Origin: a virus
Lineage: Duplodnaviria; Heunggongvirae; Uroviricota; Caudoviricetes
DNA: 51,134 nucleotides
IMG/VR virus record: IMGVR_UViG_2724679172_000007
Direction: 5' to 3' (one strand)
The position numbers and the translations under genes were made by a program. Positions within the stretch are counted from its first letter, which is position 1; each line of letters starts with the position of its first letter. Of the stretch, positions 3,811 to 39,048 are shown piece after piece. Under the pieces are notes generated by a model. It searched no databases, was not told where the DNA came from, and was given only the letters and a program-made list of their open reading frames with translations.

Positions 3811-6800
3811 TTAATCCTCAAGCAGAGCATCCAGCGACTGGTCATTAATAGTTGTGCTCGCACGTGGTCGCGGCTGCGGCTGCGATGTTTTGACAACATT
3901 ATCCGGATCGCCTTTTGTATTGTTCTTGTTCACATTCAGCAGATCGTTCAGGATAGAGCAGATGTTATCCAGCGCCTTCAACATAGCAGGATCGTTATTT
4001 ATAGTGTCAGTAGTTAATGGTTGTCTTATTCCGCTTCGTGCGAGATCGGTTACAGTAGGGAGTTGTGGCGGCATAGCAAGAAAAGGTTCTTGCACAGCTG
4101 AAGCAGAGCCAAATATGGCGTTATTGGCACCAGTTGCTATTCCCCTAATGCTATTAGCGGTTTGTTGAATCCCCCCATTCAGCCAGTCTCCAACATTTCT
4201 TGTTAATGGGCTAATAGCTCGCGCAATCGCACTATTCTGCCCAGTAGACTGCATTACAAGATCGTTCAATATCCCTGTACTATCAATCCCCCCAACAAGT
4301 CGTGAAAGGTTATCGCCAACGGCAGGAATTACTGCGGTTCCTGTCTGTTTAAGCCCTGACACCGTGGAATCAAATAGCGAACCAAAGAAGCTCTTATCCT
4401 CACCTGTAACCACCTTGTAGCCGTTGTCATAAATCTGCACATCACTTGGTGCCGTGATAGTTCGTTTTCCAGAGGTAACTACTGGCGCAGCTCCCGCCAT
4501 AGCCTGGTTGATTGCCAGAGCCTGCTCCTGCTGTGGAGTTTTCGGTGCTGGCGCTGCAGACGAAAAGCCCGCCATAGCCTGGCTGATTGCCAGAGCCTGC
4601 TCCTGCTGTGGGGTTTTCGGTGCTGGCGCTGCAGACGAAAAGCCCGCCATAGCCTGGCTGATTGCCAGAGCCTGCTCCTGCTGTGGGGTTTTCGGTGCTG
4701 GCGCTGCAGACGAAAAGCCCGCCATAGCCTGGCTGATTGCCAGAGCCTGCTCCTGCTGTGGGGTTTTCGGTGCTGGCGCTGCAGACGAAAAGCCCGCCAT
4801 AGCCTGGCTGATTGCCAGAGCCTGCTCCTGCTGTGGGGTTTTCGGTGCTGGCGCTGCAGACGAAAAGCCCGCCATAGCCTGGCTGATTGCCAGAGCCTGC
4901 TCCTGCTGTGGGGTTTTCGGTGCTGGCGCTGCAGACGAAAAGCCCGCCATAGCCTGGCTGATTGCCAGAGCCTGCTCCTGCTGTGGGGTTTTCGGTGCTG
5001 GCGCTGCAGACGAAAAGCCCGCCATAGCCTGGCTGATTGCCAGAGCCTGCTCCTGCTGTGGGGTTTTCGGTGCTGGCGCTGCAGACGAAAAGCCCGCCAT
5101 AGCCTGGCTGATTGCCAGAGCCTGCTCCTGCTGTGGGGTTTTCGGTGCTGGCGCTGCAGACGAAAAGCCCGCCATAGCCTGGCTGATTGCCAGAGCCTGC
5201 TCCTGCTGTGGGGTTTTCGGTGCTGGCGCTGCAGACGAAAAGCCCGCCATAGCCTGGCTGATTGCCAGAGCCTGCTCCTGCTGTGGAGTTTTCGGAGTAG
5301 AAGGGGATACTTGATCTCCCGGAAGTAGATCAATGATTTCTGTATCGTGATTAACAGTGCGTTTTTGTTGTATGGCTGTTGCGATATCAGCCACTTGAGA
5401 AGCTTTTTTAAATCCAAAAGATTTACCGGTTAAGCCGGATATCTTTTCAGTAAGAGCCTGATCCATTCCTTTCGCTTTTTCGGAAAGCGAAGATATAGAA
5501 CCAAACGAAGTAGCCAACGCAAAATCCTTTACCAGGTCCAGACTTGTTCCAGCAAGGCTGGTAGCCGCGCCGCCAAATAAATTACTTGCACCACTGATTC
5601 CGCTTTCATTTATTGCGATTAACCGCTCAAGCAAACTCGATGGAGAGCCGGTATTAACATCAGCGTTCTCTGGATTAATCGGTTGTGGTTGGTTACCTGT
5701 TTTTTGTGGCTTTTTGACTGCCTGGGCATGTTGTGCAACCTCAATTGGCTGTTGTGTTGCTGTCGGAACGGCATTCAAAACTGGTTGAGCTGGAGATTTT
5801 CCATTAGCATATTTTACCTTGCGACCAACACTATATTGCGAATCGCGGGCAATTAGCTGACCACCATTTTCTTTCTGAATTTTATTAATCCGCGCCAATG
5901 TTTCATCAGAGAATTGCCCCTCCCATCGACCAGTGTTTGTGTTAAATGCTCCAAGTGCGTTCTTAATGAACTCATTATTAACTGCCGGATTTCCGCCTTC
6001 TTTCGTCGCAATTGCACGAACTAATTGCGTCATAACCTCTGGTTTGCTGACATCTATTTTTTCATTAGGCGATACACCAAGATATTTACTGACGTTATCA
6101 ATATATTGGTTAGTATTGTTCTCATTTGGCGGTGCCCATTTTGAAATGATGCTGGATACCGTCTGTAACTTCTGATATCCCGCTGCGGCACTGGTGCCGT
6201 TGTAATAGCTGGAAACCTGGTTTGCCAGTGCCCTGATCCCTTCTTCAGGTGTGTTAAATCGCGCAAAACGTTGTTCACCTTTTGCATTTGGCGATTCCAG
6301 CGTCGCCCCTTCCTGGTTGGCAAAAACAAGATTGCCGAGATTATTATTTCGGTAATTGCGGTTTTTAGCGTTGCTGCCGCCAATATTCAGATCCGCTGCA
6401 ATGGTGTTGTTGGCAGGTGCACTAAATTCAGTTGGAGAAGTATACCCGTGCTCACCAACTCCATCCTCGCCATTACGCCCACCTTGTAATTGTTCACCTA
6501 GAGAATGAATCGCATCGACAGTTTTTTTGGTGCCGTCTTCAACAGCTTTTTTTACTTGTTTCGTGTTTTCGTCAGTGGATAAAAATGTATCCTTAAGGCT
6601 ACCAAAAACAGATTTGGTGATATCTACCGCGCCGTTAACACCACGAGCAATATCTCCGGTATCAAAATTCTGAAGTTTTTCACCTGCTCTTTCAAATCCT
6701 AGCGCAGAAATTCCTTTCCCTATCAAGTTCGTTGCGCCCGACACCAAGCCCCCCATATCGAGCACATTAGCTGTTGCGTAAGCCGTTTTTTGCTGTTCGG

Positions 6801-8391
6801 ATACAGCATCATCGTCACTTAATCCAAAGGCTGCCTTTTGCGCATCTGTATCAGTGTAACCATCTATAGCGTCATATCCCGCCATAGCCAGCGATCCGAT
6901 GATAGGGATAGCTCTTGCAGCTGTAGAAGCAGCTGATTTAACACCTATTTTTGCAGCACTTTTGAGGGCTACGGATTCGGTTTTTTTCTTTGCAACAGTT
7001 TCACCTGTTTTAACTGTGGCCTCTTCGGCAACAACACCTGCTGGCTTAACTGCCTTTGCTGTGTTTTTTGTTTCTTTAGCAATACCCTTAGATGCGTCGC
7101 TTGTGGTGCTGATGTCTTTGGCTTTACTAACCTTTGTTTTAACAGTCTTTGCAGCTCCAGCACCAGCTCCAGCAGCAGCGGTTCCGGCAGCGGCTTTTTC
7201 ACCAACAGAAAGGGCTTTTTTCCCCAGATTGCGACCTTTCCTTTTCGGTTTGTTCCGTTTATTTTTACCAGCCTGATCGCCAATATTGATTTTATTTCTT
7301 CTGCTTGCTCGATTTCTCCAGAGATCACTTAAGCCGAACTTATTCCCAGAAGATACTGATTTGCGTAGCTTAACTACTTCGTCGGAGACATTTTCCAGAC
7401 CATCAATTATTTTGTTGTCATTGGTCTGAAGAATTTTTGTTTGCTCTTCTACTGCTTGTGCTGATTTTGTCTCAACAGCATTATTAAATGCTGTTGCAGA
7501 GGTTGCTTTTTGAGTATTAACCACCGCCGGATAAGTGATAGCTGGAGATGTCGCTTTCGAAGGTGAAGCCTCACCTTTCCCCTTTTCTACCCATTCTTTA
7601 AGAGATTCTGCTTTACCTGTGATCTCTTTAGTAATGTCGTACATGCCGCGAGCAGCCATCCACAACGGACCACCAGCGCCAACACCTGCGGCATCTGTTA
7701 AAGACTCTTCACTGGAAGACTGATTGCCATCTACCCCTATAATGGAGCCTAATTTCCGGAGGAAGCCTTCTTGTAGTTTGGCGTCGGCCTTATGTGCTTT
7801 CTGCCATTCTTTTTTTCTGGCTATATCTTCGTTGTTTTTCTGGGATACAAAGCGTCCGTTACTATCCCGAAGCGGTCCTTTTTGGCTTTGGGGGGATTGT
7901 GGTTCAAGAGGAGCAGAATTAGCGGCTACTGGCACAGAACCTTTCAACTTTTGGGCTGACTGGCGTGATGACGCAAAATGAACGCGCTCTGATGTGTTGG
8001 TTGCAACAATGAGACGTTCTTCTCCGTTGTTGATCTGCGTCCTCCCTTTTTTCATCGGAAGGCGTTTTATATATGGGTTAGCTTGGGTGTTCTTGGCATC
8101 ATCAGAGACATAGGGTTCGCTTGCTATGAGTCTACGGGATAGTCTTTGACTTACTTTACCTTGATTTTCACCAAGTTGAGTTATAGACCCTCTACCAGAG
8201 AGAATGGCGTCTTTGATCTCAGCAAGAGCGTTAAGTTCGTTTGTGCTCGCCCCCTGAATAGCGTCAATTATTGCGATACGGTCTTTATTCTCTTTCAAAA
8301 TAACCTCTCTTTTGCCAGCGGCGATCAACGTTTCCCGGCTTGAGCTTTGTATTTTTCTTCCAGGGCTTTTGACATATGGAGTGCTCGCCAT
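3811..8391 (-). CDS. Tail tape-measure / structural injection protein (P1 Sit-like), with internal 25-aa tandem repeats
   Basis: 1526-aa ORF, Ala/Gly/Ser/Lys-rich and low-complexity; contains about 11 consecutive copies of KTPQQEQALAISQAMAGFSSAAPAP; followed by baseplate genes as in P1 (sit-pmgA-bplA-16-R-S). Confidence 0.6.
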   Translation of the reverse strand: MASTPYVKSPGRKIQSSSRETLIAAGKREVILKENKDRIAIIDAIQGASTNELNALAEIKDAILSGRGSITQLGENQGKVSQRLSRRLIASEPYVSDDAKNTQANPYIKRLPMKKGRTQINNGEERLIVATNTSERVHFASSRQSAQKLKGSVPVAANSAPLEPQSPQSQKGPLRDSNGRFVSQKNNEDIARKKEWQKAHKADAKLQEGFLRKLGSIIGVDGNQSSSEESLTDAAGVGAGGPLWMAARGMYDITKEITGKAESLKEWVEKGKGEASPSKATSPAITYPAVVNTQKATSATAFNNAVETKSAQAVEEQTKILQTNDNKIIDGLENVSDEVVKLRKSVSSGNKFGLSDLWRNRASRRNKINIGDQAGKNKRNKPKRKGRNLGKKALSVGEKAAAGTAAAGAGAGAAKTVKTKVSKAKDISTTSDASKGIAKETKNTAKAVKPAGVVAEEATVKTGETVAKKKTESVALKSAAKIGVKSAASTAARAIPIIGSLAMAGYDAIDGYTDTDAQKAAFGLSDDDAVSEQQKTAYATANVLDMGGLVSGATNLIGKGISALGFERAGEKLQNFDTGDIARGVNGAVDITKSVFGSLKDTFLSTDENTKQVKKAVEDGTKKTVDAIHSLGEQLQGGRNGEDGVGEHGYTSPTEFSAPANNTIAADLNIGGSNAKNRNYRNNNLGNLVFANQEGATLESPNAKGEQRFARFNTPEEGIRALANQVSSYYNGTSAAAGYQKLQTVSSIISKWAPPNENNTNQYIDNVSKYLGVSPNEKIDVSKPEVMTQLVRAIATKEGGNPAVNNEFIKNALGAFNTNTGRWEGQFSDETLARINKIQKENGGQLIARDSQYSVGRKVKYANGKSPAQPVLNAVPTATQQPIEVAQHAQAVKKPQKTGNQPQPINPENADVNTGSPSSLLERLIAINESGISGASNLFGGAATSLAGTSLDLVKDFALATSFGSISSLSEKAKGMDQALTEKISGLTGKSFGFKKASQVADIATAIQQKRTVNHDTEIIDLLPGDQVSPSTPKTPQQEQALAISQAMAGFSSAAPAPKTPQQEQALAISQAMAGFSSAAPAPKTPQQEQALAISQAMAGFSSAAPAPKTPQQEQALAISQAMAGFSSAAPAPKTPQQEQALAISQAMAGFSSAAPAPKTPQQEQALAISQAMAGFSSAAPAPKTPQQEQALAISQAMAGFSSAAPAPKTPQQEQALAISQAMAGFSSAAPAPKTPQQEQALAISQAMAGFSSAAPAPKTPQQEQALAISQAMAGFSSAAPAPKTPQQEQALAINQAMAGAAPVVTSGKRTITAPSDVQIYDNGYKVVTGEDKSFFGSLFDSTVSGLKQTGTAVIPAVGDNLSRLVGGIDSTGILNDLVMQSTGQNSAIARAISPLTRNVGDWLNGGIQQTANSIRGIATGANNAIFGSASAVQEPFLAMPPQLPTVTDLARSGIRQPLTTDTINNDPAMLKALDNICSILNDLLNVNKNNTKGDPDNVVKTSQPQPRPRASTTINDQSLDALLED
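4491..5295. repeat. Tandem direct repeat, 75-bp unit, about 10.7 copies, in-frame within the tape-measure-like gene
   Basis: Unit agcctggctgattgccagagcctgctcctgctgtggggttttcggtgctggcgctgcagacgaaaagcccgccat starts at 4501, 4576, 4651 ... 5251 (period 75); internal copies are identical, the first and last differ by 1-2 nt. Confidence 0.95.
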
Positions 8392-9655: not shown

Positions 9656-10411
9656 ATGAACAGAGCGGAATTAACAGCAAAAGCCGTCAGCCTGATTGAG
9701 TCAGCGACACCTATTAGTCGTAGTCTGGCACAAGCCAATGAGATCACGGAGGCTGCTTATCACCTGACTCGCGACCAAAAGCGACTGTTGTTTATTGTGG
9801 TGGGAAGACTTCGCTATGCTTCTAAGGATGGCGTTCTTGGTTCAGGTGCCTGTGAGTTGACGGTCAACGAATATGCAGAGATGTATAATTTGCCCTCTGC
9901 TGAAGCCAGCAAGGATATTCGTAAGGCCATTTCAGGGCTTAGCGAGAAGAAAGTTACGATATATAACCCTGATGAATCGACCGAATCAGAAGACAGTTAT
10001 GAGTCTTATCCCTGGATGATTAAGGATGCCTATTCACCACGGCGCGGGACTTACATTATTCATCTTAATCCATATCTCATGCCGTTTTTTACTCTGCTTG
10101 ATAAGAGATTCACAAGGCTGAATTTTACCGAAGTATCTCGCCTTACAAATCCTTATTCTATGCGGCTTTATGAGTCCTTATGCCAGTACAGGAAGGATGA
10201 TGGAAGCGGCTTTGCCATACTTGGCGTCGAATGGATGCGGGAGCGTTATGGGTTACCAAAAAGCTATCAGCGGTATGCCGAATTTAAGAGAAGTTTTTTA
10301 ACGAAGGCTGTAGCAGAGATTGAAAAAAATACAAAAATGAAAATAGTCTTCTCAGAGGTGACGGAAGGCGGCAAAGTTACCAGGATAAAATTTACCTATC
10401 AGCAGTCTTAA
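9656..10411 (+). CDS. repA: Iteron-binding plasmid replication initiator RepA (Rep_3-like)
   Basis: ORF flanked on both sides by arrays of the same 19-bp iteron; start assigned to the ATG at 9656 just downstream of the last upstream iteron; architecture parallels P1 oriR (incC-repA-incA). Confidence 0.75.
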   Translation: MNRAELTAKAVSLIESATPISRSLAQANEITEAAYHLTRDQKRLLFIVVGRLRYASKDGVLGSGACELTVNEYAEMYNLPSAEASKDIRKAISGLSEKKVTIYNPDESTESEDSYESYPWMIKDAYSPRRGTYIIHLNPYLMPFFTLLDKRFTRLNFTEVSRLTNPYSMRLYESLCQYRKDDGSGFAILGVEWMRERYGLPKSYQRYAEFKRSFLTKAVAEIEKNTKMKIVFSEVTEGGKVTRIKFTYQQS

Positions 10412-18914: not shown

Positions 18915-19213
18915 TCCCCCTTCCCTTCCCAAATCTCCCTGTTTCTTTGGTTATTCAGTGCGTTTCGTTGGTTGCATTCGTCGATCGTGCTGAATAACTG
19001 TTCAGCGTATGTCGGATACTTGTTTAACAGCACTGGCGTGTCTTCTGGCACTAAACAAGGGGAGTAATCAATCAGATTTGCCTGCGGCTTGCTGGTGGCT
19101 TCTACGGTAATTTTCACTGGCACGCTGGTTGATGGCTTTTGCCCGTTCCCGCTGCATCCTGATAACGTCATCAGGCACACGCACATCGTTAATCCCAGCA
19201 CGGCGTAACGCAT
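18902..19213 (-). CDS. Outer-membrane spanin subunit (Rz1-like lipoprotein)
   Basis: Signal peptide with lipobox (MRYAVLGLTMCVCLMTLSGC); Pro-rich mature part; start embedded in the 3' end of the Rz-like gene in another frame, the classic overlapped spanin architecture. Confidence 0.55.
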   Translation of the reverse strand: MRYAVLGLTMCVCLMTLSGCSGNGQKPSTSVPVKITVEATSKPQANLIDYSPCLVPEDTPVLLNKYPTYAEQLFSTIDECNQRNALNNQRNREIWEGKGDQGS

Positions 19214-19541
19214 TTTCAAGGCGAGTGATTTCATTCTGGCTTTCCTCCCGTTGTTTGATTAGGTTGGCATTCAGTTCTGCTGTTTTGCGCTGGTACTCCT
19301 TTTCCAGTGCTTTAATTCTTTCGTTTTCGGTCAGCATGGCTGAGCGAGCGTTCTCACTTAACTGTAATGCGGTAGAAAGCGTGTTGTTCGTGCTTTCCAG
19401 TTGTGATTTTGAGTCTTCAAGCGCTCGGACATACCTGATGTGTTCGATAACTGCCGTCGTTGTTCGGTAAATTCCAGAAATGGCTAAAAGCGCAATTACA
19501 ATCAAAATTATCTTTTTCAAAACCATCCTCTTTAGGTTCAT
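19068..19541 (-). CDS. Inner-membrane spanin subunit (Rz-like)
   Basis: 157 aa; N-terminal transmembrane segment (KKIILIVIALLAISGIY) followed by a long charged coiled-coil; overlaps the lipoprotein gene. Confidence 0.6.
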   Translation of the reverse strand: MNLKRMVLKKIILIVIALLAISGIYRTTTAVIEHIRYVRALEDSKSQLESTNNTLSTALQLSENARSAMLTENERIKALEKEYQRKTAELNANLIKQREESQNEITRLENALRRAGINDVRVPDDVIRMQRERAKAINQRASENYRRSHQQAAGKSD

Positions 19542-19596
19542 TTTTGGTGTTAAACATGTACCAATTCACATCCTTTTGTGTTCCTAAGTGGTGTTG

Positions 19597-20400
19597 CTAT
19601 GGTTCCTTTTTGGTGTTCTTTTGGAGCGCATCGATAACGCCTTGTGGCATGATTAAACTGATTGCCGGACTCATTACTGCATCATCCAGTAGAGAACCAG
19701 TTAACGTGATGGCGACAGCGTTCTCTAAACCTTTGGTTGCCTGAGTGGTTGACGTTTTAATGCGACCTGTAAGGGCTACGACACTCTCACTTGCTGAGTT
19801 AATTTCGGAGAGTAAAACTTCGGCGGCTGTCACTGCTTCCCGTAAAGCTTCAATTTCATCCTGAGTAATGACTGGAGCCTGAGCGCCCCCAGCACCACCC
19901 TGTCCACCATTGCTATCACCACCAGCACTTCCAGCAGCTTCTATTTTTGCGTTAATGGCGTTCATGGCGGTTTTCAGAGCATCAAGTTTTAGCGCCGTCA
20001 ATGCGTCCGTTAGAGATTGCGGAATGGAAACATTCCCCATCCCCTCAACAAGGGCGAAAGCAGGTATGGGGGTCAGCTCGTTACCTTTTACGTAGCATTC
20101 CCAGCCAATCTTCATCTGTAACAGCTCTGATGGCTTGGTGTAAGGGGAAAGAGAATCAGCCAGTAATGAAGACGCTTTGCTGGCCTCATTTAGCTGTTCA
20201 GAAAAGCCAAGCAATTGAGTAGTCCAGGCCGAAACAGAATCAGGATAGGTTTTATCGGCGTGAACTATTCCCTGTATGGCGCTGGCGAGTGATGAGGCTT
20301 TTACAGACGCTGCCCGGCTTATGGTTATAGATTCTGGTGTAGAGATACCGGCATCTGACAGAATTTTGAAGGCTTTAACTTCACCTATTGAATCAAGCAT
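19597..20400 (-). CDS. Hypothetical protein with Gly/Ala-rich linker
   Basis: Start reassigned to the ATG at 20398-20400, which overlaps the PAAR-like stop codon (TAATG). Confidence 0.4.
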   Translation of the reverse strand: MLDSIGEVKAFKILSDAGISTPESITISRAASVKASSLASAIQGIVHADKTYPDSVSAWTTQLLGFSEQLNEASKASSLLADSLSPYTKPSELLQMKIGWECYVKGNELTPIPAFALVEGMGNVSIPQSLTDALTALKLDALKTAMNAINAKIEAAGSAGGDSNGGQGGAGGAQAPVITQDEIEALREAVTAAEVLLSEINSASESVVALTGRIKTSTTQATKGLENAVAITLTGSLLDDAVMSPAISLIMPQGVIDALQKNTKKEP

Positions 20401-20684
20401 TATGCAACCTGAAAAATATCCTCGCCGTTGGCGATAACAGAACCACAAGAAAGCGGATCGCCTACACAGACAACTCCCTTTCCACCTATCGAAAACCATA
20501 CTCGCGTCGATACAGCTGCCCCTGGATGTGCACTGTTACCGTCAGTGTGACTGGGAAACATGGCACCATCTACAACAACTGGCTTACCGTTAACGGTGAA
20601 CCAGGGAACAGTTTCAGCTACCAGTCGCGGCGGAAATCCTCCGTGACCAGAGCAAAGGGTGTCGCTGGTGGCTATTGCGCTCAT
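20400..20684 (-). CDS. PAAR-like protein (putative spike tip)
   Basis: 94 aa; Gly/Pro/His/Cys-rich with VNGKPVVVDG and GDPLSCGSVI segments resembling PAAR repeats. Confidence 0.45.
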   Translation of the reverse strand: MSAIATSDTLCSGHGGFPPRLVAETVPWFTVNGKPVVVDGAMFPSHTDGNSAHPGAAVSTRVWFSIGGKGVVCVGDPLSCGSVIANGEDIFQVA

Positions 20685-20729
20685 TCTTCACCTCCTGGTT
20701 ATCCTCCTATTGTCATCACTTTGTTATTT

Positions 20730-20930
20730 CGTCATTCAAACTGAGAGTTCAATTTCGGAATATTTTTGTATTCTCAATTCATTCTCAAATAAATCTCACT
20801 GTCAGACCATCATTCATTGGGTGATTAAGATATTCTCAAAATGAACTCAATAATCACTCTTTTTTATCTCTTTTGGTGTGGATTTTTGGGGGCCTCTCTT
20901 TTAAAATTGCATTTTGATTCTCAAATGTGT
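20730..20930. promoter_or_regulatory. Putative parC-like centromere/promoter region upstream of parM
   Basis: Four copies of ATTCTCAA (20769, 20780, 20831, 20916) in an AT-rich region immediately upstream of parM. Confidence 0.4.
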
Positions 20931-20950
20931 CTCAGAAGTGGAGCAAGAAG

Positions 20951-21907
20951 ATGCGCATTTTTATCGATGATGGTTCAACCAATATCAAAATGCTGTGGGA
21001 GCACGACGGGGAAACTCGCACTCACATCAGCCCTAACAGCTTTAAGCGCGGATGGTCAGCAACATTTGGTGCGGGCAAGCCGTTTAACTATGTCATTGAC
21101 GACGAAAAGTATTCGTATGATTTGATCTCGCCAGATGTTCTGCCGACGAATAACGTGGAATGGCAATACAGCCCGCTTAACGTCCTGGCTGTTCACCATG
21201 CCCTGCTGACAAGTGGCATTGAGCCGCAGGAAGTAGAAATTGTGGTCACGCTGCCTCTGGCGGAGTTTTACGACGACGACGCGCAATACAATCTCGATAA
21301 CATCGAGCGCAAGAAAGCCAGCCTTATGCGCCCCGTCACGCTGAATAAAGGCAATGTGTTCACGATTAAGAAAGTTACGGTACGCCCGGAGTCTATTCCG
21401 GCAGGAATTGGCCTGTGCGACAATCTGAACCCTGCCCATTCTGTTCTTATCGTCGATTTGGGTGGAACTACCCTTGATGTTTCAATGGTCGCCGGGCAAA
21501 TGACGGCAGTTTCCCGTGTTTTTGGCGATTCGAATCTTGGCGTCTCTCTGGTTACCAGGGAAGTAAGGCAAGCACTTGCCAGAGCCAATACCGAAACGTC
21601 AAATTACAATGTCGATCAGCTCATTATTAACCGCCACGATGAAGATTATCTGAACGACAATATCAATGACCCATCAGCGATTGGTGATGTGAAAAAGGCC
21701 ATTGCCGCAAGCATTGACCGTCTGCGTACCCGCGTTCTTGATGTGATTGGCGACTTTAAAGGATATACGCATGTCATGGTGATCGGCGGTGGCGCACCGC
21801 TGGTGGCAGATGCAATTCGCGAGCAAGTTAATATTCGTGATGACCGTTTCTTCGTGGCGGATGACCCGCAACTTGCTCTTGTTCATGGCCTGAAAGCAAT
21901 CGGTTAA
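20951..21907 (+). CDS. parM: Actin-like plasmid segregation ATPase ParM/StbA
   Basis: Begins MRIFIDDGSTNIK and contains SPNSFK, NVLAVHHALLTSG, IERKKA, MPESIPAG, IVDLGGTTLD, YTHVMVIGGGA, closely matching plasmid R1 ParM as recalled. Confidence 0.85.
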   Translation: MRIFIDDGSTNIKMLWEHDGETRTHISPNSFKRGWSATFGAGKPFNYVIDDEKYSYDLISPDVLPTNNVEWQYSPLNVLAVHHALLTSGIEPQEVEIVVTLPLAEFYDDDAQYNLDNIERKKASLMRPVTLNKGNVFTIKKVTVRPESIPAGIGLCDNLNPAHSVLIVDLGGTTLDVSMVAGQMTAVSRVFGDSNLGVSLVTREVRQALARANTETSNYNVDQLIINRHDEDYLNDNINDPSAIGDVKKAIAASIDRLRTRVLDVIGDFKGYTHVMVIGGGAPLVADAIREQVNIRDDRFFVADDPQLALVHGLKAIG

Positions 21908-21914
21908 CGAGGTA

Positions 21915-22259
21915 ATGTCCATGTCTCAGGAACGTAAGAAAGTGATGATTTATCTTCGCCCAGAGGCTTATGCCAATGAAAAGGCGGCGAGCGAGAAGAT
22001 AAAAAAACATAGCGATATGGCAAGAACCGCATTGTTGGCAGGGCTTGCGCTGGGAGAAGTCGATAGCAGGCTTCCAGGATTACTGGCTTCCCTGCTGACC
22101 GAAGATAATAATCCGGAGCTGATCCGAAAAATGCTGGCATCCTTCCTGGAACTACCAGCTGCGGTTGAGGAGCGCCCTGCCTCCATTGAGCCAGTGAAGG
22201 AGCAAGTTGTTGCCAAAAGCGCGTCGGCGCGCAATCTGGCTGACTCTCTACCTGATTGA
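21915..22259 (+). CDS. parR: ParR-like centromere-binding adaptor
   Basis: 114-aa ORF 8 nt after parM; ALLAGLALG and LLASLLTEDNN segments resemble R1 ParR; followed by an intrinsic terminator. Confidence 0.55.
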   Translation: MSMSQERKKVMIYLRPEAYANEKAASEKIKKHSDMARTALLAGLALGEVDSRLPGLLASLLTEDNNPELIRKMLASFLELPAAVEERPASIEPVKEQVVAKSASARNLADSLPD

Positions 22260-22276
22260 CAGAAGATGTGCTGGTT

Positions 22277-22303
22277 TAAGGCTGCAAATTGCAGCCTTTT
22301 TTA
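22277..22303 (+). terminator. Rho-independent terminator after parR
   Basis: aaggctgcaaattgcagcc hairpin followed by a TTTTTT run. Confidence 0.6.
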
Positions 22304-22546
22304 TGCCTTAATGGTGCCTAATTGGTGTTTATCTGGCACCAGTTAGGTGCTGTTATGGTGCGGTTTTGTATCTGGTTCCAATTTGGGGCTGATTTCGTGT
22401 TAAATAGGATGCAATATAAGGTGTATTTGGTCTGATTGATGTTATACTTTGCCAAACATTCATGACTCCATTATAGAGCCTGTCCCGCATCAAAAAGGCT
22501 CTTATCTGGAACCGTTTTGATACCAAAATCACACCGAGGAACGGAT

Positions 22547-23188
22547 ATGATTATATTGGTAGTCAGCCAAAAAGGTGGCTGTGGAAAATCAACCACAAGC
22601 GTAAACATCTGTGCGGAGCTTGCCCGCGCAAATAAGGATGTAGTGTTACTAGATGCAGACAAGCAAGGAACAGCTGCCCGCTGGGCAGCTGACCGTAACA
22701 CGGCAGAGGTTTCTCCTGTAATTCATTGTGTCCAGAAGTTTGGTAATATTCGAGAAACACTTCTCGATCTGGATAAGCGTTATGAATTTGTTGTTGTTGA
22801 TACAGCCGGGCGCGATAGCAAAGAGATGCGTACAGGCATAACCGCTGCAGATATTGTGTTGGTCCCATTCAGACCATCTCAACCAGATTTAGACACGCTG
22901 GCACACTTTGTTGAAGTGTTTGAAGAGGCTTTGGACCTGATGCCTAATCCTAGCATTAAGGCGTTCGCAGTCTTAACAATGGCCCCATCCAATCCGGTTG
23001 TGAATGAAACCAATGAGGCCAAAGAGTACCTGGCTGAATATCCGCAACTGAAGTTGCTGAAAACCATCATTCGTGATCGTAAGGTTTACCGCGATTGCAT
23101 GGCTGAAGGGAAGGGCGTTGTTGAGATGGACAACGGGAAAGCTAAAGGTGAAATCCAGATGTTGGTTAAGGAGTTATTAAGTGATTAA
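22547..23188 (+). CDS. parA: Small Walker-type partition ATPase (ParA/ParF-like, type Ib)
   Basis: Deviant Walker A QKGGCGKST near the N-terminus (start set at the ATG at 22547, 6 nt after a GAGGAA SD); about 214 aa, typical of type Ib ParA. Confidence 0.75.
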   Translation: MIILVVSQKGGCGKSTTSVNICAELARANKDVVLLDADKQGTAARWAADRNTAEVSPVIHCVQKFGNIRETLLDLDKRYEFVVVDTAGRDSKEMRTGITAADIVLVPFRPSQPDLDTLAHFVEVFEEALDLMPNPSIKAFAVLTMAPSNPVVNETNEAKEYLAEYPQLKLLKTIIRDRKVYRDCMAEGKGVVEMDNGKAKGEIQMLVKELLSD

Positions 23189-23468
23189 GCCTCGTAAATC
23201 GGTAAAAGCCCCCGAAGTAAAAGACCCCGATCTTGAACGCCGAATTGAGGATTTTGCAAGTAAGGCTGATTTGGTGCCGGGTGAGCAACCAGAAGACAAC
23301 AAAGTGCTCGATAAGGACGCTCCACGTGATTTTAAATCTATTCGTGTTGGTTTCAATGAATACGAGTACCAGGTACTTGATGCGTTGAGCAAAAAGCATA
23401 ATCGCAGCAAATTGAATATGATCCGCCATGCTATCCTCATGTTAGCGGAGTCTGAGGAAGCAAAATAA
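23181..23468 (+). CDS. ParG-like ribbon-helix-helix partition protein
   Basis: 95-aa basic/acidic small protein, GTG start overlapping the parA stop (GTGA); C-terminal region compatible with an RHH fold. Confidence 0.5.
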   Translation: MIKPRKSVKAPEVKDPDLERRIEDFASKADLVPGEQPEDNKVLDKDAPRDFKSIRVGFNEYEYQVLDALSKKHNRSKLNMIRHAILMLAESEEAK

Positions 23469-23508
23469 AGTCTTTCAGGTTGGTTTTAGAACTTAAAAAG
23501 TCTTGAAC

Positions 23509-23560
23509 CAAAGGTGCACCAATACACCACTAATTTGGTGCACCTTTACATCCTTTTTGG
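23509..23560 (+). terminator. Inverted repeat/terminator downstream of the par operon (possible second centromere-like site)
   Basis: Arms caaaggtgcacc / ggtgcaccttt with a 16-nt loop, followed by a T-run (cctttttgg); the GGTGCAC core also occurs upstream of parA. Confidence 0.45.
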
Positions 23561-23736
23561 TTCCAATTGTGTACCATTTGTCATTAATTTACTTATGCGC
23601 AAAAGTGGGCTTCATGAAAAAGCTCATTATTGAAATAACGATAGAAAGTAATTTCTAATCAACTAGTGGTTGTCAGCCTATTCGGCTTATAAGATCATAC
23701 GCTGTTATACGTAGTTTACGCTTTGAGGAATCCACA

Positions 23737-25354
23737 ATGAGTGAGGCAGAAGCCCGCCCGACTAACTTTATTCGTCAGATCATCGATGAAGATCTGGCCA
23801 GTGGTAAGCACACCACAGTACATACCCGTTTCCCGCCGGAACCGAATGGCTATCTGCATATTGGTCATGCGAAATCTATCTGCCTGAACTTCGGGATCGC
23901 CCAGGACTATAAAGGCCAGTGCAACCTGCGTTTCGACGACACTAACCCGGTAAAAGAAGATATCGAGTACGTCGAGTCGATTAAAAACGACGTTGAATGG
24001 TTAGGTTTTCACTGGTCTGGCAACATCCGTTACTCCTCCGATTATTTTGACAAACTCCATGCCTATGCTGTTGAACTGATCAACAAAGGCCTGGCGTATG
24101 TTGACGAACTGACGCCGGAACAGATCCGCGAATACCGCGGCACCCTGACGCAGCCGGGTAAAAACAGCCCGTACCGCGACCGCAGCGTTGAAGAGAACCT
24201 GGCGCTGTTCGAAAAAATGCGTACCAAATTCACCGTTTATCGTGATGCGCGATCCGGTGCTGTACCGCATTAAGTTTGCTGAACATCACCAGACTGGCAA
24301 CAAGTGGTGCATCTACCCGATGTACGACTTCACCCACTGCATCAGCGATGCGCTGGAAGGTATTACGCACTCTCTGTGTACGCTTGAGTTCCAGGACAAC
24401 CGTCGTCTGTATGACTGGGTACTGGACAACATCACCATTCCTGTTCACCCGCGCCAGTACGAATTCTCGCGCCTGAATCTGGAATACACTGTGATGTCCA
24501 AGCGTAAGCTGAACCTGCTGGTGACCGACAAGCACGTTGAAGGCTGGGATGACCCGCGTATGCCGACCATTTCCGGTCTGCGTCGTCGTGGTTACACTGC
24601 GGCTTCTATTCGTGAGTTCTGCAAACGCATCGGCGTGACCAAGCAGGACAACACCATTGAAATGGCGTCGCTGGAATCCTGCATCCGTGAAGATCTCAAC
24701 GAAAACGCGCCGCGCGCAATGGCGGTTATCGATCCGGTGAAACTGGTTATCGAAAACTACCAGGGCGAAGGCGAAATGGTCACCATGCCGAACCATCCGA
24801 ACAAACCGGAAATGGGGAGCCGTCAGGTGCCGTTTAGCGGTGAGATTTGGATCGACCGCGCCGATTTCCGCGAAGAAGCTAACAAGCAGTACAAGCGTCT
24901 GGTGCTGGGTAAAGAAGTGCGTCTGCGTAATGCTTACGTCATTAAGGCAGAACGCGTGGAGAAAGATGCCGAAGGCAATATCACCACCATCTTCTGTACT
25001 TATGACGCCGACACCTTAAGCAAAGATCCGGCAGATGGTCGTAAAGTGAAAGGCGTTATTCACTGGGTGAGCGCGGCACATGCGCTGCCGGTTGAAATCC
25101 GCCTGTACGATCGTCTGTTCAGCGTGCCGAACCCTGGTGCTGCGGAAGATTTCCTGTCGGTGATTAACCCGGAATCGCTGGTGATCAAACAGGGCTTTGC
25201 TGAACCGTCTCTGAAAGACGCGGTAGCGGGTAAAGCATTCCAGTTTGAGCGTGAAGGTTATTTCTGCCTCGACAGCCGCCATTCTACGGCGGAAAAACCG
25301 GTATTTAACCGCACCGTTGGGCTGCGTGATACCTGGGCGAAAGTAGGCGAGTAA
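23737..25354 (+). pseudogene. glnS: Glutaminyl-tRNA synthetase gene (glnS) disrupted by an internal frameshifting indel
   Basis: The N-terminal ORF (23737..24273; HIGH motif in [12 protein letters not shown]) and the C-terminal ORF (24188..25354; VMSKR motif) are consecutive GlnS pieces in different frames; the frame breaks at 24223-24232, where 10 nt (accaaattca) replace roughly 57 nt of the wild-type sequence as recalled. Confidence 0.8.
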
Positions 25355-25400
25355 TTTTAAGTTCAGTTAGGTTAATAGGTATTTCGCCACATAAAAAAGT

Positions 25401-25427
25401 AAACGCCGCTACTGCGGCGTTTTTTAC
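25401..25427. terminator. Bidirectional rho-independent terminator (glnS / dam convergent)
   Basis: Hairpin cgccgc-tact-gcggcg with an A-run upstream and a T-run downstream. Confidence 0.65.
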
Positions 25428-26329
25428 TTCATTATTGCAATTATATCGTTAGCAACTACACGTGTTGACGCCTTGCAGGACACCGACCGTCTGGCTGCCA
25501 TATGATGTACTTTAAACCCGTTTCCTTCATATAGTTCACGGATGTTTGGCGCACCACTATTTGTTATCACTACCTTAGCGCCGCGCTGGTGGGCTTCCAC
25601 CAATAGAGATACCAGCCGTTTCTGTTCGTCGAAACGGAAGCTATTTCCTGAATAACTGGTAAACCCTTCTGTATCCGGCAGCGGTTCATACGGCGGATCG
25701 CAAAAAATCACATCGCCTTCACCAGCCGCCTCGATGACGCCAGCAAAGTCACCTGATACAAAGGACGTGTTTTTGAGTACGTCATCAGCCAAAAATGCCT
25801 CCATCTCTGCATGTGGGAAGTAGGGCGCTTTGTATTTGCCATACCCCACGTTGAACTCGCCATTTTGGTTGTACCGCGTTACGCCATTAAAACAGTGCCG
25901 ATTAAGGTACAAAAAGGCGGCAGCATGATGTAGCTGGTCATACTTTCCTCTGTTAAATGCCTCACGCACTTCGAGGTAAGCGTCAGCGTTGTTGTAATTT
26001 TGGAAAAAACTATATGACAGCGTGACGAGCGAATGTCCTTCTCGCTGCAATGTCTGATAGAAGTTAATCAGGTCACCGTTAATATCATTAAGCAGGTTGT
26101 GGCAAAATCCTGCATTCGTAAATACGGAACCGCCACCAACGAATGGTTCTATTAACCGCTTACCGTGTGGTAGATGCTCAAGCACTGTAGGCAATTCTGA
26201 GAATTTACCACCTACCCATTTGAATATCGGACGCTCATATTCATCTGGAGTCCGAATGGTGCGCATATAGCTAATTTCAGCCATCGTATCCTGTTTTTCT
26301 ATGGCTATGCTTGCTATAGATTTACTCAT
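25424..26329 (-). CDS. dam: DNA adenine methyltransferase (Dam-like, D12-class N6-MTase)
   Basis: Contains the DPPY catalytic motif and an FVGGGSV-type SAM-binding motif; start set at the ATG at 26327-26329, preceded by an AAGGGGG SD and placed 2 nt after the upstream gene's stop. Confidence 0.75.
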   Translation of the reverse strand: MSKSIASIAIEKQDTMAEISYMRTIRTPDEYERPIFKWVGGKFSELPTVLEHLPHGKRLIEPFVGGGSVFTNAGFCHNLLNDINGDLINFYQTLQREGHSLVTLSYSFFQNYNNADAYLEVREAFNRGKYDQLHHAAAFLYLNRHCFNGVTRYNQNGEFNVGYGKYKAPYFPHAEMEAFLADDVLKNTSFVSGDFAGVIEAAGEGDVIFCDPPYEPLPDTEGFTSYSGNSFRFDEQKRLVSLLVEAHQRGAKVVITNSGAPNIRELYEGNGFKVHHMAARRSVSCKASTRVVANDIIAIMK

Positions 26330-36207: not shown

Positions 36208-36816
36208 GTGAAGTTAAGGGTTTTAGGGACCGCGCTCGCGGCTATGTTGGGATGCGTATCTGTTAATACAGCCAATGCAACTGCGTTACCTGCACAATTC
36301 AGGGCAGGGCAGCAGGTTATGAATAACGCTGGTGGGGATCATTCACAAGCGGCAATTATGGACTTTTGCAAGAGAGAGGGCATTCCATTACGGCCTGTTG
36401 GAACTCAGTTTATTGGTAAAACTGACTTTTGCGTTTTTGCATATACAGCATATCTGACGGACAAAGCTATAACAAAAACAGGTTATTCAACCAAAGATAC
36501 TCTTTCCAGATTAAGTCAGGGATGGCAGCAATTCGAAGTGTATCGCCAGCAAGGATTAGGTGAGTTATTACAACCACTTTTTATGCTTGCGCTGGTGCCC
36601 GAGGGGCAGCAATTTTTGGTTAAAAAGGGAATGCTTCGCCAAAGTGATATTGCCGGGTTCGATAGCATGATGGCTTATGAGCGCAAACTAACCGAGCAGC
36701 GAAATAAAAAACCATCTGCTTCATGTGTGCAAAGTAAAACAGCAGAATACAGTGCAGTAGCCGGGCCTTTAGCCAAACAAATGGCAGAGCAATGGTGTAA
36801 AAAATACGGGCAATAA
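36208..36816 (+). CDS. Putative lipoprotein (secreted, unknown function)
   Basis: Signal peptide with lipobox (KLRVLGTALAAMLGC); probable GTG start 7 nt after a GAAGGA SD. Confidence 0.4.
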   Translation: MKLRVLGTALAAMLGCVSVNTANATALPAQFRAGQQVMNNAGGDHSQAAIMDFCKREGIPLRPVGTQFIGKTDFCVFAYTAYLTDKAITKTGYSTKDTLSRLSQGWQQFEVYRQQGLGELLQPLFMLALVPEGQQFLVKKGMLRQSDIAGFDSMMAYERKLTEQRNKKPSASCVQSKTAEYSAVAGPLAKQMAEQWCKKYGQ

Positions 36817-36836
36817 GTTACGCAGCGGAGGCAGAA

Positions 36837-37229
36837 TTGAAAAGATTGGCTATTGCTTTACTGGCGTCTTTCCCTTTGATCGCGAGCGCCGGAAATTTAC
36901 AAGTTAAGTGCGGTCGGTTTGATATAAAAATCTATCCGGATGCCATATTTCTGAATGGGAATAAGGTTGATAACGCACACCGAAAAACTGAATCTGACGT
37001 AATGAGCTATGTGTTCCAGGAGTATGCGGAGATGGGGGGAACTTACACGCTGTACTCGCTGGATGTTCCTTCTCGCGGTGATATGACATTATCCCATCAA
37101 TGGCAGAACGCCGATGGCGAAGCTCTGCGCGAGGTTAAAACAGAAAAATGTGGCACTTTCCATTCTTTTAAAGGGAAAGCGCCAAATGTTAAATCTGTGC
37201 TTGAAAAACAGCGCGCAGGTGAGCTTTAA
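36837..37229 (+). CDS. Secreted protein (signal peptide, unknown function)
   Basis: N-terminal signal peptide MKRLAIALLASFPLIASA; 130 aa; in an operon with the upstream lipoprotein gene. Confidence 0.45.
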   Translation: MKRLAIALLASFPLIASAGNLQVKCGRFDIKIYPDAIFLNGNKVDNAHRKTESDVMSYVFQEYAEMGGTYTLYSLDVPSRGDMTLSHQWQNADGEALREVKTEKCGTFHSFKGKAPNVKSVLEKQRAGEL

Positions 37230-38738: not shown

Positions 38739-39048
38739 ATTGGCAGCCTCCTTTGACTAAGTTAAGGAGCTACCGCGTGAGGTTCCAATCTCAATGGCGG
38801 TAGCACTGACTGGGTTGGAACTACCGGCGTCAAAGGGAACCGGCCTGCCTTTCGGCAGCCCAGCCAGCACTACCATTGATCTCTGAGCTAAACGCTACGT
38901 ATGGCTGTGCGATGGCATGACACAAAAAAGACGCTTTCGGCGTCTGTGTCGCCTTTGACATTATCCGGGGTTCCAATCCCGGCACCCGTTTTTCTAAGGT
39001 GCCGTAGAAATATACCCCACGATAATGCCAGGGCGCAACAGTCAGTAT

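Follow-up and report, generated by a model that had tools for sequence, protein, structure and literature searches.

Several described partition systems resemble the locus analyzed here. In the type II parMRC (stbAB) loci of plasmids R1 and NR1, the order is parC-parM-parR, and the R1 iterons, which have a spacing of 11 bp, lie on both sides of the promoter region. Plasmid TP228 encodes the ParF/ParG pair, and its parH site consists of short boxes with A/T spacers upstream of the operon. Among phage-plasmids, the linear N15 uses a type Ia SopAB system whose inverted-repeat sites are dispersed among phage genes, and P1 stabilizes its plasmid prophage, maintained at a copy number of ~1, by a single type Ia system (parABS) in which repA, parA, parB, and parS are contiguous. 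A type II and a type Ib system on adjacent DNA are found in the E. coli virulence plasmid pB171; its par2 locus, of which parC1 and parC2 form part, works in published assays of loss frequency (PMC4270457). The present analysis concerns a stretch of viral DNA of 51,134 nucleotides (IMG/VR record IMGVR_UViG_2724679172_000007; this whole stretch is referred to below as the window), in which a type II cassette, designated par1 (parC, parM, and parR), is followed by a type Ib cassette, designated par2 (parA and a gene encoding a 95-aa partner protein).

The entire window is colinear with positions 37047–85831 of Escherichia phage D6 (MF356679). Its segment 20300–24000 is 98.1% identical to D6 56489–60188 and shows 95–99% identity to ~90 plasmids from E. 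coli, Salmonella, and Shigella, which are with few exceptions typed as non-mobilizable; the full par region is present in ~100 of some 125–135 matching PLSDB records. Because of the colinearity and identity with D6 and the existence of near-identical plasmids, the element is classified, on sequence grounds, within the P1 family of phage-plasmids as D6-like. Phage-plasmids of the D6-like group occur widely in E. coli, Salmonella, and Shigella, at a copy number of ~1 per cell. Comparative genomics of relatives, which had been suggested as a check, showed that D6 and four other inspected relatives (L004–L007) all keep both cassettes.

With a probability of roughly 80%, the region serves the segregation of a D6-like phage-plasmid and carries two independent, functional partition cassettes. 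This analysis established the gene identities and the fold, the layout of the repeats, and the conservation, co-variation, and purifying selection; DNA binding, ATPase stimulation, autoregulation, and stabilization would follow the paradigms of R1, pB171, and TP228. An initial annotation of the DNA had already proposed two adjoining partition systems of different kinds, type II parMR and then type Ib ParA with a ribbon-helix-helix (RHH)-like partner; the protein families and the fold described below bear this out, and both cassettes, which are arranged in tandem, are complete. Each cassette has its own repeat arrays and promoter region, and par1 also has its own terminator. The par1 cassette comprises the following features:

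20741–20934, plus strand: parC of par1, (A/G)TTCTCA-type iterons phased at 11 bp, in three clusters with an inverted copy
20951–21907, plus strand: parM, StbA-type actin-like segregation ATPase, 318 aa
21921–22259, plus strand: parR, StbB-type adaptor, 112 aa, with an N-terminal DNA-binding region
22278–22303, plus strand: intrinsic terminator closing the par1 operon (stem of 9 bp, 5 of them G-C pairs, then TTTTTT)

The parM product is an actin-like ATPase of the ParM/StbA family, with matches to Pfam StbA_N (1.8e-69) and the ParM C-terminal domain (3.5e-55), each exceeding the gathering score, and to PHROG 691 'partition protein' (3e-76). Its ATG start follows a GGAG ribosome-binding site and agrees with the MRIFIDDGSTNIK start in relatives. 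The small ParR/StbB adaptor gene stands directly after parM, beginning 13 nt past the parM stop codon with its own ribosome-binding site; its product matches PF10784 Plasmid_stab_B (3.5e-11, 43.2 bits against a cut-off of 25) and PHROG 8671 (8.6e-60). The C-terminal tail of ParR, ...NLA(D/N)SLPD, is retained even in the 65%-identical allele of L006. The terminator (stem-loop at 22278–22298, then the T run) is strong and kept in all relatives compared.

Four ATTCTCAA repeats had been described ahead of parM/parR, and they were indeed found, at 20770, 20781, 20832, and 20917; these are four of the six copies in the 51-kb window, in which 2.2 are expected. The true par1 repeat is an 11-bp iteron with a TCTCA core, and TCTCA occurs in 20700–20950 seven times versus 0.31 expected (P 4e-8). 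The iterons form clusters at 20767–20799 (3 units), 20829–20850 (2 units), and 20914–20934 (2 units), with the inverted copy at 20745–20766; an 18-nt family, ATTCTCAAnnnnnnCTCA, has 4 copies in parC, plus inverted repeat I1. The cluster layout is shared by L004–L007, and the iterons of L006, the relative with the 65%-identical ParR, read GTCTC(T/A) instead. A conserved TAAAAT at ~20902, between clusters 2 and 3, suggests a promoter embedded in parC; the parM promoter is probably located there, within the candidate centromere, as in R1. Phased iterons overlapping the putative promoter are thus present upstream of parM, and ParR is predicted to bind them. In addition to the parC-parM-parR order, par1 shares with R1/NR1 the StbA_N/ParM and Plasmid_stab_B families, whereas its iterons appear fewer and less regular than those of R1 (~7 to 9, in three clusters, plus one inverted copy) and have another sequence.

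The par2 cassette lies downstream of the par1 terminator and comprises the following features:

22304–22425, no strand assigned: par2 upstream array, distal (A1), ~8 well-phased units and then 3 degenerate units
22440–22448, plus strand: putative extended -10 element of the parA promoter, TGtTATACT, read by eye
22459–22535, no strand assigned: par2 upstream array, proximal (A2), seven units, ending at the ribosome-binding site GAGG
22547–23188, plus strand: parA, type Ib Walker-type partition ATPase, 213 aa, lacking a DNA-binding domain at the N-terminus
23181–23468, plus strand: candidate gene for the par2 centromere-binding protein, homologue of D6 orf61, 95 aa, GTG start
23484–23585, no strand assigned: par2 downstream array (A3), ~9 units

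ParA is a short ATPase with the deviant Walker A motif KGGCGKS at residues 9–15, and both its length (type Ib: about 200–215 aa) and the lack of an N-terminal DNA-binding domain agree with type Ib. Its best match among solved structures is ParF of TP228 (4dzz), with E 1e-18 over the full length.

The gene for the 95-aa protein overlaps the parA stop codon by 8 nt, and an AAGGAG site precedes its GTG start. The protein has a basic N-terminus (MIKPRK), a helix at residues 16–29, a linker, and a C-terminal RHH domain at residues 52–92. It belongs to PHROG 9169 'unknown function'; no Pfam family (even at E ≤ 10) and no NCBIfam family was found for it, and phmmer against the PDB gave no match. An exhaustive profile search brought together 124 representative clusters of the family, whose members in distant genera are always encoded directly downstream of ParA. 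An alignment of 64 members contains a nearly invariant N-terminal M-x-K-x-R (Arg5), a conserved beta-strand, and the C-terminal block F-K-x-I-R-V-P-F-N-E-Y-E-Y...G-R-S-K-L-N-x-I-R.

The AlphaFold2 (AF2) model built from the deep family alignment has a predicted local distance difference test (pLDDT) score of 83, exceeding 90 over residues 50–92, and consists of an extended segment followed by two helices; a first model, from a 9-sequence alignment, was discarded (pLDDT 58). According to Foldseek, nearly all top matches of the model are RHH proteins, namely CopA, ParG, CopG, Arc, TacA, and AmrZ, with a root mean square deviation of 1–2 Å and a probability of up to 0.98. ParG (1p94) is among the top fold matches and aligns over the whole length of the partner. 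Weak sequence-level support comes from an Arc-like PHROG match (1.8e-4), and a profile search with the family aligned CopG and HP0222 in register (E 0.2–0.3). As modeled, the 95-aa partner has the RHH fold and corresponds at the fold level to a type Ib partner, and by its sequence it is a member of a separate, unnamed family.

GGTGCAC-containing inverted repeats had been placed by the initial annotation at 22300–22390 and 23509–23575, on both sides of the ParA operon. Repeats are present at both places, but they extend over 22304–22535 and 23484–23585, and the GGTGCAC motif holds only downstream, at 23513 and 23537, as GGTGCACC; upstream of parA the motif is GGTGC/GGCACC. The repeats are also not simple inverted repeats but parts of arrays with an 11-bp period, the par2 unit being a GGYRCC-like core with an A/T spacer. 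The 9-mer GGTTCCAAT, noted earlier on both sides of the operon, was located within the par2 arrays at 22374 and 23559.

The cores of A1 are GGTGCC, GGTGTT, GGCACC, GGTGCT, GGTGCG, ..., GGTTCC, and GGGGCT. Six of the seven A2 units stand in perfect 11-bp register at 22470–22535 (ATTATAGAGCC, TGTCCCGCATC, AAAAAGGCTCT, TATCTGGAACC, GTTTTGATACC, and AAAATCACACC). A3 contains the two GGTGCACC palindromes (23513, 23537), GGTTCC (23559), GTACC (23571), and inverted repeat I1 (13 nt, 100% complementary). A G+C periodicity of about 11 bp was detected in the parR–parA spacer (P 0.0002–0.002; for 22304–22540, P 0.0002), and GGTGC/GCACC is tenfold enriched (8 observed versus 0.81 expected, P 2e-6). Between A1 and A2, the putative -10 element is kept as TG(T/C)TATACT in L004–L007 while its surroundings diverge. 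Repeat arrays are therefore found both on the promoter side and downstream of the operon, as in type Ib systems, and binding of the partner to them is predicted.

To avoid circular reasoning, a position weight matrix (PWM) was trained only on the flanks of ParA/partner modules from distant homologues (Rahnella, Kangiella, and a Moraxellaceae metagenome-assembled genome; ParA 62–68% and partner 44–57% identical to the window proteins), and the window was scanned on both strands. At ≥9 bits, 6 sites were found in the two par2 flanks (380 bp) versus 0.29 expected (P 6e-7), and the densest 250 bp of the 51-kb window is 22301–22550. In A1 there are 8 PWM matches versus 0.64 expected (P 4e-7); those at 22313, 22324, 22346, 22357, 22374, and 22385 are spaced by 11 bp or multiples, and a further one at 22362 is out of phase. 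A PWM-dense stretch at 36650–36950, not phased and merely A-rich, was treated as chance. A simple GGYRCC scan with one mismatch allowed was unspecific, other regions scoring equally, and had been replaced by the PWM.

The A2 layout recurs directly upstream of parA in Rahnella, Kangiella, Moraxellaceae, and a held-out locus (L012), and A3-like downstream arrays are present in all D6-like alleles as well as in Rahnella, Kangiella, and Moraxellaceae. In modules of Acinetobacter and Moraxella, where the partner is 35% identical, a different repeat is found (TAGTTCTAAA/AACTAATTT); the motif thus co-varies with the protein.

One more array of the par2 type was found outside the operon:

19531–19628, no strand assigned: remote par2-type array (A0), nine units phased at 11 bp, in the gap separating the orf55-like gene from the upfB-like gene

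A0 is situated 2.9 kb upstream of parA, beyond par1, and fills the whole intergenic gap with the units TTTAGGTTCA, TTTTTGGTGTT, AAACATGTACC, AATTCACATCC, TTTTGTGTTCC, TAAGTGGTGTT, GCTATGGTTCC, TTTTTGGTGTT, and CTTTTGGAGCG, in this order. It has 7 PWM matches at ≥6 bits versus 0.64 expected (P 5e-6) and an 11-bp G+C periodicity (P 0.01). Its position and motif are conserved in D6 and L004–L007 despite sequence divergence, and in the complete D6 genome A0 and the par2 upstream region are the two densest PWM sites. No promoter-like or terminator-like site was found in A0 by the scan.

The arrays could also be read as operators only, the ParA/95-aa pair being a transcriptional regulator, a copy-control ('cop') module, or a system that positions another cargo. 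RHH proteins are often plain repressors, CopG, Arc, and antitoxins are among the closest folds, the promoter lies between A1 and A2, and A0 is situated between virion-associated genes. In the D6 GenBank record the four par genes are labeled 'StbA type', 'StbB type', 'possible ParA partitioning function', and 'hypothetical'. In a Salmonella study they appear as cop, parA, stbB, and parM, a homologue of the small gene being labeled 'cop' (PMC6799933). These alternatives to a segregation system nevertheless appear very unlikely, since the ATPase is related over its full length to ParF and pB171-type ParA, both proven in partition, and the conserved two-gene module with arrays upstream and downstream reproduces the layout of pB171 par2. 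In type Ib systems operator and centromere are one DNA; furthermore, arrays past the stop codon and at the remote site have no obvious operator role, and the replication gene is 10.5 kb distant.

The comparison with pB171 was made through the near-identical double par locus of pMAR7 (NC_010862, 91797–94306), which likewise has type II and type Ib systems on adjacent DNA. ParM of pMAR7 is 43% identical to the window ParM (E 6e-91), its ParA is 43% identical over the full length (E 8e-59), and its ParR is 32% identical within the first 75 residues, the N-terminal DNA-binding part. The par2 partner of pMAR7 has 91 aa versus 95 aa here and also overlaps the parA stop codon, and repeats in pB171/pMAR7 par2 are found upstream around the promoter and downstream of the operon (PMC4270457). 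According to these homologies, the double locus of the window is a relative of the pB171 double par locus.

The two loci differ in arrangement, which is tandem with a terminator in between here and divergent in pMAR7, where parR and parM stand opposite parA and parB and share one intergenic region. ParB of pMAR7 is not detectably homologous to the 95-aa partner, and a relationship between them was rejected (BLASTP E 0.14; hhalign probability 0.7%). The repeats are also different, with a GGYRCC core at 11 bp here versus A/T-rich TTCATA/ATCACA-like repeats in pMAR7. The remote array A0 is additional here, and the host is a phage-plasmid, in contrast to the conjugative virulence plasmid that carries the known double locus.

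The par2 layout resembles that of TP228 parH, and ParF is the best solved match to ParA; however, no sequence similarity between the partner and ParG was found, the length and spacing of the boxes are unlike, and arrays are present downstream and at a remote position. With N15 the element shares the phage-plasmid lifestyle and, as predicted here, sites for a partition protein outside the par operon; the arrays are of the RHH type, and A0 is the sole one outside the operon. P1 belongs to the same phage family, and its partition system has the same role of stabilizing a plasmid prophage at a copy number of ~1. Unlike P1, D6-like elements contain no P1-type ParB, and their par genes are located ~10.5 kb from the rep gene.

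The presence of two par loci on one replicon had been regarded as uncommon. Besides the precedent of pB171/pMAR7, a 2026 survey found multiple partition systems on ~19% of the PLSDB plasmids having any, with type I-RHH plus type II on 971 accessions (PMC13245405), so that this view does not hold.

Selection on the four par genes was estimated from pairwise ratios of nonsynonymous to synonymous divergence (dN/dS) against five relatives. The values were 0.01–0.04 for parM, 0.06–0.08 for parR, and 0.07–0.16 for the partner gene; parA gave 0.03–0.05 at dS ~1 and 0.14 in the near-identical comparison with D6 (dS 0.014). Synonymous divergence saturates in some comparisons, with dS reaching values above 1. 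Over all four genes, the dN/dS range of 0.01–0.16 indicates strong purifying selection.

These values bear on the possibility that only one cassette works, the other being a remnant in decay or a passenger that recombination brought in. On other plasmids with two systems, one of them may dominate in the laboratory, as in SCP1, where only parABS1 is crucial (PMC13245405), and decay does occur nearby, as the glnS gene beside par2 is probably a pseudogene here. Loss of function of one cassette is nevertheless considered unlikely: the four genes are intact and constrained up to synonymous saturation, the inspected D6-like relatives retain both cassettes and arrays, and conservation extends to the motifs, the terminator, the promoter element, and the ribosome-binding sites.

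Judging by nucleotide identities, D6-like phage-plasmids combine their par1 and par2 alleles in a mosaic fashion, and the cassettes reassort independently. Compared with L004, parM of the window is 99.2% and parA 83.9% identical, whereas with L006 the respective values are 80.8% and 92.2%. Similarity breakpoints were found at the cassette borders (window positions ~20895, 22316, and 23466); this pattern points to an exchange of cassettes, for which incompatibility may be the driving force. In other genera no ParM was found within 4 kb of ParA/partner modules; therefore, the pairing of par1 and par2 is not an ancestral unit.

The initial annotation had suggested a possible cointegrate history; the dual locus would then be the scar of a cointegrate to which each of two replicons contributed its own par system. 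The systems are of different types, the ParA module stands alone on plasmids and contigs of other genera, and L007 additionally carries an IncFIA replicon. In the window, however, the only plasmid rep gene found is a Rep_3-type replication initiator gene at 9656–10411, a D6 orf42 homologue (99.6% identical) that sits among tail genes ~10.5 kb from the par cassettes, and no second replicon, relaxase, or insertion sequence adjoins the cassettes. Both are situated between upfC and glnS/dmt, flanked by P1-homologous virion and methylase genes. The typed relatives are non-mobilizable, and rep_cluster_1704 is the only replicon type in three of the four, the fourth being L007. The correspondence of the breakpoints to the cassette borders fits module exchange rather than replicon fusion, and the lone ParA modules elsewhere point the same way; an origin by cointegration is thus extremely improbable. 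Redundancy at very low copy number, the other explanation offered in that annotation, is plausible.

Several observations weigh against the interpretation of the region as two functional partition cassettes. The literature search, whose reach did not include the D6 genome paper, found no paper testing D6-like par loci. ParA matches NCBIfam ParA_partition over its full length (8.5e-48), with a score of 162.6 bits that falls under the equivalog cut-off of 180. The 95-aa protein has no sequence homology to ParG (phmmer, profile search) or pB171-type ParB, and the Foldseek E-values of 0.16–3 are not significant alone, because the domain has only ~40 residues. A3 taken alone is statistically weak (PWM P 0.03; periodicity P 0.11). 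The consensus promoter scan gave no convincing promoter for either operon, and the positions were inferred from -10-like elements; that at 22440–22448 was not reported because a good -35 element is lacking.

If the two-cassette interpretation is correct, the systems would operate as follows. By analogy with R1, ParR dimers would coat the 11-bp TCTCA iterons of parC and, as these overlap the parM promoter, would repress their own operon. The ParR/parC complex would capture the ends of ATP-ParM filaments, and filament growth between two such complexes would push sister plasmids apart. In par2, the 95-aa RHH protein would bind arrays of GGYRCC-like hexamers one helical turn apart; these arrays, placed like parC1 and parC2 of pB171 around the parA promoter and after the operon, would be joined by A0 as a third. 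The basic N-terminal tail of the partner may stimulate the ATPase of nucleoid-bound ParA dimers, the sole pointer to which is the nearly invariant Arg5 in M-x-K-x-R of the 64 homologues, and a ParA gradient would space the plasmids evenly along the nucleoid. Together, the two systems, which differ in mechanism, would redundantly insure a replicon kept at a copy number of ~1.

A wider joint reading is put forward tentatively and is more doubtful than the presence of two working cassettes: the dispersed par2 arrays would form one higher-order complex that couples par1 and par2, and the reassortment of cassettes would be an escape from incompatibility. The 95-aa protein may recognize A0, A1/A2, and A3, which bracket the par1 operon and two virion-associated genes. 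Pairing or bridging between the arrays, if it occurs, would fold the 4-kb segment into one higher-order partition complex, and par1 and par2 would be coupled via cross-regulation of the par1 and upfB/upfC/orf55 transcripts, a layout unlike that of pB171. The independent reassortment of par1 and par2 could reflect selection against partition incompatibility between co-infecting relatives.

The segregation hardware of D6-like elements helps to explain their stability and incompatibility behavior. Since the two-system design is already well known, the gain is incremental; what is new is the assignment, with the aid of modeling, of a putative function and fold to an unannotated family (D6 orf61, PHROG 9169), the definition of a cross-genus DNA motif for this family, and a map of cis-sites at three locations, the remote array included. 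The site and family assignments would be useful for engineering P1/D6-type vectors.

Extra motif clusters were observed in the modules of Rahnella and Moraxellaceae, ~150 bp to 1.8 kb downstream of the operon (L009, 5040–5200 and about 6680–6880; L011, about 2400–2560); the dispersal of arrays may thus be a family trait. As for the genes next to the cassettes, a PAAR-motif protein homologous to P1 upfC (Pfam PAAR, 27.2 bits) is encoded on the minus strand at 20400–20684, directly upstream of parC and divergent from parM, and is probably a tail-spike tip protein. On the other side, next to par2, the phage-borne glutaminyl-tRNA synthetase gene glnS (23737–25354), which is intact in D6, has a net 47-bp deletion here (D6 glnS nt 490–539; junction 24225/24226). 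The deletion splits it into two out-of-frame open reading frames, and the gene is therefore probably a pseudogene.

An Rfam scan of 19000–26000 reported no RNA family. Elsewhere in the window, Rfam matches on the minus strand correspond to a C4 antisense RNA (38793–38880, 77 bits) and an isrK-like Hfq-binding RNA (38924–39002, 63 bits), which belong to an immI-type immunity region upstream of icd. The other two window copies of GGTTCCAAT, at 38781 (3' edge of the C4 match) and 38969 (inside the isrK-like match), lie in this immunity RNA region and were set aside as unrelated to partition.

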